DNA of 64,000 nt from an uncultured virus (IMG/VR IMGVR_UViG_3300034071_000245) (lineage: Duplodnaviria; Heunggongvirae; Uroviricota; Caudoviricetes), in the IMG/VR virus record IMGVR_UViG_3300034071_000245. One strand, 5' to 3'. Positions within the stretch are counted from its first letter, which is position 1. Each line of letters opens with the position of its first letter. Position numbers and translations under genes: made by a program. This document shows positions 60,638-63,695 of the stretch, one piece after another. Below the pieces are notes generated by a model that saw only the letters and a list, made by a program, of their open reading frames with translations, did not search any database and was not told the origin of the DNA.

Positions 60638-61225
60638 TTAAATGCCAAGAGCCTTGAGGTCAAGGCCTTCAATCGAGTCCCAATCACGATCAATGTTGAA
60701 CGAAGTGCCAACTTCACCGCTAGTGCCGAAAGTCTCGGTCACATCGTCAAATTCACGGACATTCTTGGGCTTGAACTTAGCACCGACTGCCTTGAGCTTT
60801 GCAAGGTTAGCTGCCTTGATATCAGCAACGGACTTTTTAGCAGCGACCTTCTTAGGAGCAGCCGCAGCAGCCTTCTTAGCAGCAAATTCCTTGCTGGTCT
60901 TTGCGACAATCGTAGAAAGCTTAACAGTCTTTTGCTTGGGAGCCTTAGCAGCCTTCGGAGCAGCAGCCTTACGGGCAGCGCCGTGGACAGTGTTACGAAT
61001 AGCCTCAGCGTTAGAGGGTTCAGCGATTAGCGTATAAGACGCAACCTGGCGACCGTCTTTTTGCTTAGTGATGGTAAAGCCAAGCTTGCCGAGGTACCAG
61101 ACATGCTTAGACGCATAATCGCCATCGCCGACATGAGCATTAATCTCGGCCGGGGTAACGGGAACATTCATCTTGATAACCTGAAGGACCTTGACAACAG
61201 TAGGAGAGATAGTCAGATTTGCCAT
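60638..61225 (-). CDS. Putative DNA-binding protein: winged-helix-like N-terminus, Ala/Lys-rich H1-like linker, acidic tail
   Basis: KAAAPKAAKAPK...AAKKAAAAAPKKVAAKK; own early promoter. Confidence 0.6.
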   Translation of the reverse strand: MANLTISPTVVKVLQVIKMNVPVTPAEINAHVGDGDYASKHVWYLGKLGFTITKQKDGRQVASYTLIAEPSNAEAIRNTVHGAARKAAAPKAAKAPKQKTVKLSTIVAKTSKEFAAKKAAAAAPKKVAAKKSVADIKAANLAKLKAVGAKFKPKNVREFDDVTETFGTSGEVGTSFNIDRDWDSIEGLDLKALGI

Positions 61226-61257: not shown

Positions 61258-61324
61258 ATTATAGGACAGTTTGGGACCCCTTGCAAGGGAAAAATGCCCG
61301 AAAAAGTGCGACATGATGACGCAC
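61258..61324 (-). promoter_or_regulatory. Early promoter TTGCAA-17-TATAAT with upstream palindrome GTGCGTCA-N3-TGTCGCAC
   Basis: -10 at 61258-63, -35 at 61281-86, palindrome at 61306-61324. Confidence 0.7.
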
Positions 61325-61331
61325 CCCTAGT

Positions 61332-61553
61332 CTATCGATTAGGTAGACTATTCAAGGCTTGGACTGGGCCATACCGGTCGTCCATGTCATAATACAGGGA
61401 ATCGATAATCCCCCCGACCATGTCACGGTCGACCTTGAGAGCGGACCGGGCGTTTACATACTCGACCACATCGCCGAGATAATAAGCGCCAGCTTCAATA
61501 GCATCGCCCACGAGTTCCACGATTTCGGTATAAGCATCAGACATGCGAGACAT
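61332..61553 (-). CDS. Hypothetical early protein
   Basis: GGAGGA RBS. Confidence 0.65.
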   Translation of the reverse strand: MSRMSDAYTEIVELVGDAIEAGAYYLGDVVEYVNARSALKVDRDMVGGIIDSLYYDMDDRYGPVQALNSLPNR

Positions 61554-61903: not shown

Positions 61904-62137
61904 TTAGGCGTTCCAACCCATCCAGTCTTCAATCTGATTCTGTGACACTTCAACAGCCACAGCACCATCAAGCCACTTGTTGATATGCTTTGAGGTAGTG
62001 CGAGAGAATTTAGTGGAGGTGCGATAAAACTTGCCTTTGACATAAGCAGCAACAGGCGTCTTATATGAAACGAGAAAGGCATTCTCGCCATGACGGATTT
62101 CAATCTGATTTGAACCGATAGAAGCAGCACGAAGCAT
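61904..62137 (-). CDS. Conserved phage hypothetical early protein
   Basis: LVSY.TPVAA...FSRTTSKHINKW motif; AAGGA RBS. Confidence 0.7.
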   Translation of the reverse strand: MLRAASIGSNQIEIRHGENAFLVSYKTPVAAYVKGKFYRTSTKFSRTTSKHINKWLDGAVAVEVSQNQIEDWMGWNA

Positions 62138-62165: not shown

Positions 62166-62233
62166 ATCATAGGACATATTCCGTCAAGAGTCAATAGGAA
62201 AACGACTAAAAGAGGTGTGACAGATTGTCGCAC
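62166..62233 (-). promoter_or_regulatory. Early promoter TTGACT-17-TATGAT with upstream palindrome GTGCGACA-N3-TGTCACAC
   Basis: -10 at 62166-71, -35 at 62189-94, palindrome at 62215-62233. Confidence 0.7.
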
Positions 62234-62382
62234 CCCTTATGGCCACGCTTACGGTCGTATTTGACCTTGGACTTGACTATTCGTTGCCTGAATTGCCCAT
62301 TTTTGAGCGCAAAAGCCACGGGGTTGGCAGCACCGGTGGTGCGTTTGCCCCGCTGGCTCGTGGTACCCCCGCTTTTTGACAT
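62206..62382 (-). CDS. ArfA-like alternative ribosome rescue factor candidate (58 aa)
   Basis: Manual ORF MSKSGGTTSQRGKRTTGAANPVAFALKNGQFRQRIVKSKVKYDRKRGHKGCDNLSHLF; GAGGAG RBS 7 nt upstream; N....L....FRQR..K.K..Y.RK..H as in ArfA. Confidence 0.6.
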   Translation of the reverse strand: MSKSGGTTSQRGKRTTGAANPVAFALKNGQFRQRIVKSKVKYDRKRGHKGCDNLSHLF

Positions 62383-62471
62383 ATCGACGCTCCTCGGTCG
62401 TTGGTATGGCCCAGTCCAAGATCGACTTAAGCTGGGCCATATTCTATATGGTTAAGTTCAAGGTGAAGGGA

Positions 62472-63695
62472 TTAACCCTTCACATTTAGCACCTGACGGA
62501 GACGATGCACGATTTCCACAAGGTCATCCTGTGCAGCCATGACCGCACCAATGTCCTTGTAGGCAGCCGGTGACTCGTCAATTACATCAGCGTCCTTACG
62601 GCATTCGATACCCTCGGTCGCCTTGATATGATCATCCAGCGTGATTGCCTTACGAGCCGCATTGCGGGACATACGACGACCAGCACCATGAGAACACGAA
62701 CAAAACGAATCCTGGTTACCAAGACCACGGACAATGAACGAACCCGTACCCATCGAACCCGGGATAATACCCAGATCGTCCTTACGGGCACGAACCGCAC
62801 CCTTACGGGTCACCCACACATTCTTGCCAAAGTGGTTCTCCTTAGCAATATAGTTGTGGTGACAGTTCACAGCCTTTTCATCAGAAACAACGAAAGCCGG
62901 TAAACGCTCACGAAGAACCTTTAGCACGGCATCCATCATTAACTGACGGTTAAGAGCAGCAAACTCCTGTGCCCAAGATACAGCCTCTACATAATCATCG
63001 AACAGTTCCGTATGTTCTACAAGATAGGACAAGTCCTGATCCGGTAGATACGGCAGGATATGATAGCGTTCCATTTCACGCTTTGCAGCATCAATGAAAT
63101 ACTGACCAATCTTGTTACCTACACCACGGGACCCGGAGTGCAGCATTACCCACACATAGTCATCCTCATCAAGACACAGTTCGATAAAGTGGTTGCCCGT
63201 TCCCAGGGTACCCAGGAACTCAACATCCTTATGGGACTTGATCTTCGGGTGCTTCTCAACGATCTTCGCATAGCGATCCGCCAGAATGTTCCATGCACCA
63301 GCAACATTCAGCGGCATATCAAGCCAGGTACCACGATCATTCTTACCACCGTTGTCGGTACGACCATGCGGAACCACGGACTCGATATGAGAACGCAGCG
63401 AGTGAAGGTTGTCCGGTAGATCGTTCGCCGTCAATGACAGACGAACAGCCATCATACCACAACCGATATCAACACCAACAGCAGCCGGCACAACTGCACC
63501 AACCGTCGGAATAACCGACCCAACCGTTGCACCCTTGCCAAGATGGACGTCCGGCATAACAGCAACATGGCCCGCAATAAACGGGAGTGACGCAATGTTA
63601 TCTAACTGGGTACGAGCATCAGCCTCGACCTCAACACCCTCGCACCACATCTTTAAACGCCCACCACGAGCGCCATCCACATACTGATATGCCAT
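62472..63695 (-). CDS. rtcB: RNA 2',3'-cyclic phosphate ligase RtcB
   Basis: MPDVHLGKG.TVG; GVDIGCG; GTLGTGNHFIE; HSGSRG; HHNY; RKGA; PGSMG; SHGAGR; DESP.AYK. Confidence 0.97.
   Translation of the reverse strand: MAYQYVDGARGGRLKMWCEGVEVEADARTQLDNIASLPFIAGHVAVMPDVHLGKGATVGSVIPTVGAVVPAAVGVDIGCGMMAVRLSLTANDLPDNLHSLRSHIESVVPHGRTDNGGKNDRGTWLDMPLNVAGAWNILADRYAKIVEKHPKIKSHKDVEFLGTLGTGNHFIELCLDEDDYVWVMLHSGSRGVGNKIGQYFIDAAKREMERYHILPYLPDQDLSYLVEHTELFDDYVEAVSWAQEFAALNRQLMMDAVLKVLRERLPAFVVSDEKAVNCHHNYIAKENHFGKNVWVTRKGAVRARKDDLGIIPGSMGTGSFIVRGLGNQDSFCSCSHGAGRRMSRNAARKAITLDDHIKATEGIECRKDADVIDESPAAYKDIGAVMAAQDDLVEIVHRLRQVLNVKG

Follow-up and report, generated by a model that had tools for sequence, protein, structure and literature searches.

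The locus described here raises the question of whether a phage gene of 58 codons, lying behind an RNA ligase gene, encodes a ribosome-rescue factor of the ArfA family and, if so, how such a factor would be controlled. The window analysed comprises 64,000 nucleotides (64 kb) and is contained in the source genome, a single contig of 174,499 bp (174.5 kb). A first-pass annotation had read the gene as ArfA-like, with a hairpin over its 3' end through which expression might be wired to tmRNA. The reading favoured here, at a probability of roughly 0.5, is that the gene encodes a constitutive, shortened ArfA homologue, which would be translated from an ordinary stop-containing message and would rescue ribosomes without tmRNA control.

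The ORF (62206..62382, minus strand) runs from an ATG at 62382 to a TAG ending at 62206 and encodes a basic protein of 58 aa, a short ArfA relative at the edge of DUF7230. A Shine-Dalgarno sequence, GAGGAG, is placed 7 nt before the ATG (62390..62395, minus strand), and the earlier description of a basic ORF with a strong ribosome-binding site was confirmed. The gene is real, conserved and under purifying selection. Over the 26-codon core, pS was 0.53 and 0.47 and pN 0.03 and 0.03 relative to related loci L006 and L007, respectively, and pS exceeded pN in all comparisons with relatives (9/9). The conserved core spans residues 20-45. It is kept throughout the close relatives (n = 11, including the protein itself), and their N-termini are variable; the last 9 residues come from reading on into a promoter palindrome. 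An AlphaFold2 model (pTM 0.29, weak) contained a single short helix at residues 21-28, at the place matching ArfA helix 15-24. A predicted complex with E. coli RF2 scored 0.01, which is uninformative either way.

The upstream neighbour is a 407-aa RtcB RNA ligase (62472..63695, minus strand; PF01139, E 2e-127). The gap from the rtcB stop to the 58-codon gene is 89 nt, so the gene does lie directly downstream of RtcB as annotated. No promoter was called between the two genes by the promoter scan, and they are therefore probably co-transcribed. Among RNA data, the one run mapped here covered nothing beyond pieces of rtcB. Two hairpins, both without a U-run, were predicted in this interval: one of 8 bp whose loop contains the rtcB stop codon (62463..62483, minus strand; z −2.8) and an intergenic one before the ribosome-binding site (62405..62441, minus strand; −25.5 kcal/mol, z −5.0). 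The latter was absent from the upstream DNA of L006, L007 and L050. Its 3' arm is also one arm of a perfect 18-nt inverted repeat (window positions 61358-61375 and 62403-62420, arms 1027 nt apart), a possible long-range alternative pairing or inversion boundary.

Loci containing family members were collected (134 in total, 93 distinct). The 92 with enough DNA comprised the E. coli arfA control, 22 loci with the palindrome (the palindrome clade) and 69 others. The rtcB gene was found within the fetched flank, mostly 1.5 kb, in 9 of the 22 palindrome-clade loci and in 0 of the others. A conserved partnership with rtcB beyond the sub-clade was rejected: of the 93 distinct loci, most of which offered 1.5 kb or less of upstream DNA, 9 contained rtcB. 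The two genes are paired only within a sub-clade, in a variable region, and as evidence for a common role against RNA damage, with which it is compatible, the pairing is weak.

Twenty-five tRNAs were counted in the genome. No tmRNA was found by ARAGORN, and Rfam returned only a match below cut-off inside tRNA-Trp. The adjoining rtcB, the tRNA complement and the lack of a tmRNA call are consistent with a rescue function. The genome was assigned as T4-like because of PHROG matches to a major head protein, late sigma factor, clamp, clamp loader and DNA polymerase, in a scan that took in 125 of approximately 177 ORFs of at least 90 aa and passed over the bulk of the structural block. Phages of Pelagibacter, Methylophilales, Stenotrophomonas and Synechococcus have capsid proteins with 62-65% identity to the one encoded here.

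Searched alone, the 58-aa protein matched no Pfam family and no PDB chain, was unmatched by the PF03889 (ArfA) and PF23876 (DUF7230) models when these were searched against its own genome, and scored 4.8 bits against an HMM built from ArfA. Two PHROGs of unknown function, phrog_2701 and phrog_20887, were matched (E 1e-4 and 5e-4). A representative-sequence search gave nine matches, from which three long proteins were discarded; P0012 (repetitive) and P0015 and P0017 (by length only) were rejected as spurious relatives. Hypothetical-protein clusters were found in the ESM Atlas at 0.92, two of them carrying DUF7230 on 10-12% of members, which was taken as a lead only. A 12-sequence profile was then matched by 206 of 2129 candidates at E ≤ 0.01. 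Among the matches listed, PF23876 was present on 40 of 120 relatives and PF03889 on none of those. A second profile was built from 72 members, hand-picked to cut redundancy, none of which was an ArfA. At E ≤ 0.1, 37 of the 72 were matched by PF23876 and 7 by PF03889, the latter weakly (best E 1.2e-4); no relevant NCBIfam family was found among the 72.

By profile search, the protein is placed at the edge of DUF7230, below the model cut-off. It has its core in common with DUF7230 (PF23876), phrog_2701 and phrog_20887, and differs in belonging to a divergent sub-clade that falls below the PF23876 model, in its longer N-terminus and in its palindrome-derived tail. Judged by its sequences, DUF7230 is a mostly phage-borne family in which neither the GKG loop of ArfA nor its small residue 18 is present. 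Many members are only 35-45 aa long and end right behind YxRK. The family was found in Acinetobacter, Agrobacterium, Rhizobium, Roseobacter and Pelagibacter phages, with some copies unannotated. Unannotated ArfA-like ORFs were also seen in the GenBank records of phages Atu_ph07 (L012:2519-2674), Cr30 (L215), CRP-212 (L216), pf16 (L218) and RsoM2USA (L220).

In cells PF23876 is rare: within one phylum it was detected in 3 of 401 genomes sampled; the figure for PF03889 was 31 of 301. A chromosomal clade in Thiobacillaceae/Hydrogenophilales (L135-L166, for example L155:3001-3174) keeps the N-terminal core and has an acidic C-terminus in place of the YxRK tail. In L155 the family member follows a gene that, judged by a motif, resembles ispD. 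PF03889 was not found in any of the five genomes tested from the same scan (5/5). One member from an Endozoicomonas MAG (L160:3001-3168) has a 10-bp hairpin directly behind YDRRK and ahead of the stop.

Relationship to ArfA was assessed by alignment and by profile comparison. The core quoted in the first-pass annotation is correct and aligns in register with E. coli ArfA (MG1655), with three residues (GKG) missing, and the KGKGS motif is lacking as that annotation had noted. In this register N20 corresponds to N14, F31 to F25, R32/Q33/R34 to R26/Q27/R28 and Y42 to Y39. When the 72-sequence profile was searched against the PDB, 13 matches were obtained at E ≤ 10, of which the top six were ArfA (best match E. 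coli ArfA, E 0.0036), ranking above every other basic protein; BrfA was absent from the 13. Comparison of 120 family cores with 30 bacterial ArfA sequences by hhalign gave a probability of 91.8% and a score of 30.2 over 31 columns. Control scores were 8.4 ± 2.0 for 100 column shuffles (maximum 15.5) and 7.4 for the reversed alignment. Homology to ArfA, for which the earlier work had proposed a profile check, is supported for the family, through the 72-member profile and hhalign, though the protein alone matched neither PF03889 nor the PDB. Short basic sequences can yield modest profile scores.

Six phage proteins (from Cr30, CRP-212, RXM, RsoM2USA and XM05, and gp30 of HTVC027P) combine the family N-terminal pattern with a KGKGS-type loop, and that of J2-1 has an ArfA N-terminus without GKG. 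Because ArfA heads the PDB matches, hhalign exceeds its controls and these intermediates exist, common descent of the family and ArfA is likely.

The protein resembles ArfA (E. coli YhdL, PF03889; PDB 5U4I, 5MDV, 5H5U and 5MGP) in size and charge, and aligns with it in register at N14, helix 15-24, F25, the R26-Q27-R28 strand, Y39-x-R-K and the following His. It differs in lacking the GKG of the KGKGSY loop, in having F at position 18 with the invariant Ala of the family one residue earlier, in its unrelated N-terminus, in lacking a long arfA-type stem and in falling below the Pfam cut-off. The KG[KR]GS[YF] loop was present in 30 of 30 bacterial ArfA sequences; none of the 76 family members contained GKGS or GRGS. 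At position 18 every one of the 30 bacterial sequences has A or S and the 58-aa protein has F; within the family, K is found there in 51 of 76 and A in 5 of 76. The invariant Ala lies one residue before the A18 position (72/72); Ala at position 17 (76/76) was built into the search pattern and was not counted as evidence. This residue could take the place of A18 through a one-residue register shift. F25 and residues 27-30 of ArfA bind RF2, and its basic tail residues contact the mRNA channel redundantly (PMC8012679). The corresponding, predicted RF2-contacting segment is kept as F31-R-Q-R-I-V and is among the best-kept parts of the protein. The tail, Y-D-R-K-R-G-H-K, is basic and keeps the His; the KH motif is inexact, and is itself present in only 15 of 30 bacterial ArfA sequences. 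BrfA of Bacillus subtilis is also small and basic and is itself RF2-dependent (PMC8012679). Its terminator-before-stop layout (PMC8012679) is what the earlier annotation had proposed for this gene, and is not conserved in the gene's family.

The hairpin at the 3' end was examined as an RNA and as a DNA element. At the DNA level it is a 19-bp palindrome (62215..62233) in a PeSL-like promoter cassette, with an extended RNA stem at 62210-62238. The arms (62238-62226 and 62222-62210) enclose a 3-nt loop, with a stability of −18.8 kcal/mol (z −4.7 on 46 nt and −1.7 on 71 nt). A 13-bp hairpin had been described; the 13 positions do form a paired region at the gene end, but with one C-A mismatch and one G-U pair. 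The TAG lies at the hairpin base as described, starting 1 nt past the 13-mer. The copy of the palindrome reported at 61306 was also found (two matches in the window, against a chance mean of 0.23), and the caveat that the palindrome occurs elsewhere was well placed, since the 174.5-kb genome contains six copies at one mismatch or fewer and these are promoter-linked.

Each of the six genome copies (6/6) is directly upstream of a sigma-70 promoter. At the gene studied here, a sigma-70-type promoter for the next gene (TTGACT-17-TATGAT; 62166..62194, minus strand), absent from the first-pass annotation, is placed 21 bp past the palindrome core. Behind it lies a 77-aa ORF with no assigned function (61904..62137, minus strand; phrog_5643, E 2e-20). 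The second cassette in the window (61258..61324, minus strand), identified by promoter scan and palindrome search, consists of a palindrome at 61306-61324 and a promoter, TTGCAA-17-TATAAT, at 61286-61258; the ORF upstream of it stops 11 nt ahead of the palindrome. The six promoters with palindromes (G000:C1:23444, 24168, 26867, 27776, 141231 and 155225) have gaps to the −35 box of 10, 0, 21, 20, 10 and 21 bp, respectively. Across the genome and related loci, a sigma-70 promoter was found behind 41 of 51 distinct palindrome copies, versus 9.6% of 3000 random sites. The gap from palindrome to −35 box was 21 bp in 28 copies, 20 in 2, 10 in 5, 31 in 2, 0 in 1 and other in 3. As the spacings step by approximately one helical turn, they suggest a protein bound to the palindrome DNA. 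The six promoters are a possible sign that the host is a proteobacterium and that early genes are under regulator control.

SpdR is a homologue of RegA/PrrA. The SpdR box of Caulobacter crescentus is CTGCGAC-N5-GTCGCAG (PMC4830024), and its 12-base core is common to the palindrome. The core TGCGAC-N5-GTCGCA has three exact copies in the genome and six at one mismatch or fewer, the copy at 62215..62233 having one mismatch. The outer bases of the palindrome are G..C, not C..G. The palindrome is probably a binding site, as predicted from these letters, for a host regulator of the RegA/SpdR type. PeSL elements are stem-loops upstream of early promoters in T4-like phages and are proposed terminators (PMC4122927). 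PeSL cassettes likewise place a repeated stem-loop just before a sigma-70 promoter, in variable regions with swapped small ORFs (PMC4122927), and some palindrome copies, fitting this layout, may terminate transcription. The palindrome differs from PeSL in that the arm sequence itself is kept, with helical-turn spacing, which points to a protein-binding DNA site, and in that many copies have no U-run. At least five T within 8 nt were found behind 15 of 41 copies, and the copy at 62215..62233 was not called by the terminator scan. Literature searches with the palindrome letters and for cyanophage promoter motifs returned nothing relevant. Between the palindrome and the −35 box (L016-L043) there is another recurrent short motif, of the TGTTTACA/TGTTGACA type, which several relatives also carry inside the ArfA-like gene.

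Stop positions relative to hairpins were compared across the loci. A strong in-gene hairpin was defined as a stem of −15 kcal/mol or stronger with its loop before or at the stop. Such a hairpin was found in 27 of 30 bacterial arfA genes and in half of the palindrome clade (11/22), against 2 of the 69 remaining members, and a family-wide in-gene hairpin, suggested by Morttis and Atu_ph07, was rejected on the last count. Within the palindrome clade the stop floats: in 7 of the 22 loci it comes ahead of the palindrome, and in the other 15 it lies inside or after it, in three reading frames, with at least three separate gene-palindrome junctions. Between L050 and L007, a 23-nt deletion between two ATAAGG repeats removes the stop, which accounts for the last nine residues of the 58-aa protein. 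In this genome the tail behind the G-C-rich stem is TTTTAGTC. Intrinsic termination releases the transcript 7-8 nt after the stem; with such a tail, termination would probably leave the TAG in the transcript, and the earlier caveat to this effect was correct. The hairpin belongs to the promoter of the next gene, so ArfA-type control by a stop-less message is unlikely for this gene in this genome.

The favoured course of events can be set out as follows. The ORF would have gained its overlap with the palindrome when a short deletion took out an earlier stop, and the palindrome in its last codons would act as the upstream element of the PeSL-like promoter cassette of the next gene. The gene would be expressed, probably early and along with rtcB, from a stop-containing message. 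On ribosomes stalled on broken mRNA, the basic tail (Y42-R44-K45 onward) would occupy the vacant mRNA channel, and host RF2, recruited by the F31-R-Q-R-I-V strand, would release the peptide. Ribosomes would thus remain available when phage mRNA or tRNA is cleaved, with tmRNA control absent.

Other accounts of the protein were weighed against this one. Having the same origin as ArfA, the peptide might have changed its job: it would plug the mRNA channel or decoding centre without activating RF2, and would compete with host tmRNA-SmpB or ArfA, shield phage proteins from tagging, or park ribosomes. Retention of the basic tail and F-R-x-R strand together with loss of the GKG loop and of the small residue 18 that RF2 activation requires favours this account, and ArfA A18T, an inactivating change in E. 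coli ArfA, binds and recruits RF2 without activating it (PMC8012679). It is countered by the conservation of the RF2-contacting segment, by intermediates with K at position 18 that keep the full KGKGS loop, and by the invariant Ala, which could fill the A18 place; a changed job is considered rather unlikely. Alternatively, the likeness to ArfA may be convergent or no longer functional, the product being a small basic nucleic-acid-binding peptide with a job off the ribosome. The failure of the protein alone to match anything in Pfam, the PDB or PF03889 would then be expected, the hhalign alignment spans 31 columns only, and DUF7230 includes divergent low-scoring forms (L211) besides the Thiobacillaceae clade without the YxRK tail. 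Such an origin would have to accommodate the ranking of ArfA ahead of all other basic PDB proteins, the failure of shuffled and reversed controls and the chain of intermediates, and is judged quite improbable.

The proposal that the gene is wired to tmRNA would make the protein a back-up factor: its message would be rendered stop-less by a PeSL-type stem or a roadblock, and the protein destroyed until trans-translation is overloaded. The gene does extend into the palindrome, or past it, in 15 of 22 loci and in all three frames. At copies without an ArfA-like gene upstream, the preceding ORF enters the palindrome in 2 of 29 rows, each of them a weak match; once seven weak genome matches and one row beside the 58-codon gene are set aside, the count is 0 of 21. 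The palindrome-copy loci are related and these rows are not independent. This difference can be explained by a dispensable C-terminus, and neutral drift explains the run-in of the ArfA-like gene only partly. The stop lies beyond a U-run in L006 and L008, and unrelated in-gene hairpins occur in Morttis, Atu_ph07 (where the hairpin is strong), L160 and RXM. Stems of the PeSL type are proposed terminators, and proteins bound to DNA can make nascent mRNA a substrate of trans-translation, the predicted tagging site being approximately 8 codons upstream (PMC13584721). Tagging at that distance would fall near Y42 and cut the basic tail; E. coli ArfA shortened to 40 residues is inactive (PMC8012679), and a roadblock would fit destruction better than back-up use. 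Termination behind TTTTAGTC would keep the TAG, no terminator was called, the stop is ahead of the palindrome in 7 of 22 loci, and the read-through loci L022, L024, L025 and L027 have no U-run. Of the Acinetobacter-phage members, three have the stop ahead of a true terminator, four have it within the U-tract and one has it beyond the terminator; two lack a terminator. The 13-bp stem is also far shorter than most arfA stems, and strong in-gene hairpins are scarce outside the clade (2/69) and common in bacterial arfA (27/30). The tmRNA wiring is thus unsupported in this genome, and a gated back-up is very doubtful. Still less probable, and best called a long shot, is a version in which repeated gene-palindrome fusion was selected, with stem termination or a RegA/SpdR-type roadblock yielding a stop-less message and a GKG-less rescue factor gated by host tmRNA and by redox or growth state, one DNA element serving as operator and off-switch.

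Phage proteins annotated as ArfA are already in print. HTVC027P gp30 carries this annotation and is highly expressed early and late (PMC12753301), and g10 of vB_CbaS-RXM is annotated likewise (PMC8953757); in the accounts consulted, the ArfA role of both is an annotation (PMC12753301, PMC8953757). ArfA annotations are also present in the GenBank records of J2-1 and Bambus. Both gp30 and g10 are short phage-encoded ArfA-like peptides with the N-terminal pattern common to DUF7230 members, and they keep the KG[KR]GS loop that the 58-aa protein lacks. The short GKG-less form appears to be a new variant with a putative function. In the literature searched, which took in few subscription journals, no phage ArfA was found to have been tested experimentally, and no publication dealt with DUF7230; PMC11633108 and PMC5359404 served as background only.

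The locus of the 58-codon gene adds little beyond the family, as ArfA labels are known and the nonstop wiring is unsupported. If the short GKG-less form works as a constitutive rescue factor, DUF7230 would be a large phage-borne branch of ribosome-rescue factors, with members in Acinetobacter, Agrobacterium and Caulobacter phages that can be cultured. This would show which parts of ArfA are dispensable and would suggest that lytic phages carry their own rescue route against RNA-cutting defences, beside RtcB and tRNAs. If the protein instead binds without activating RF2, it would be a new kind of trans-translation antagonist.

Two further products were noted near palindrome copies. Behind the second palindrome promoter of the window, a 195-aa protein (60638-61225, minus strand) contains Ala/Lys/Pro-rich histone-like repeats; it had no Pfam match and is conserved in relatives. 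A 256-aa ORF (L208:14432-15199, plus strand), which ends before the copy at G000:141231 and had no PHROG match, has a C-terminus that we take to resemble particulate methane/ammonia monooxygenase subunit C, a likeness that, if right, bears on the host.
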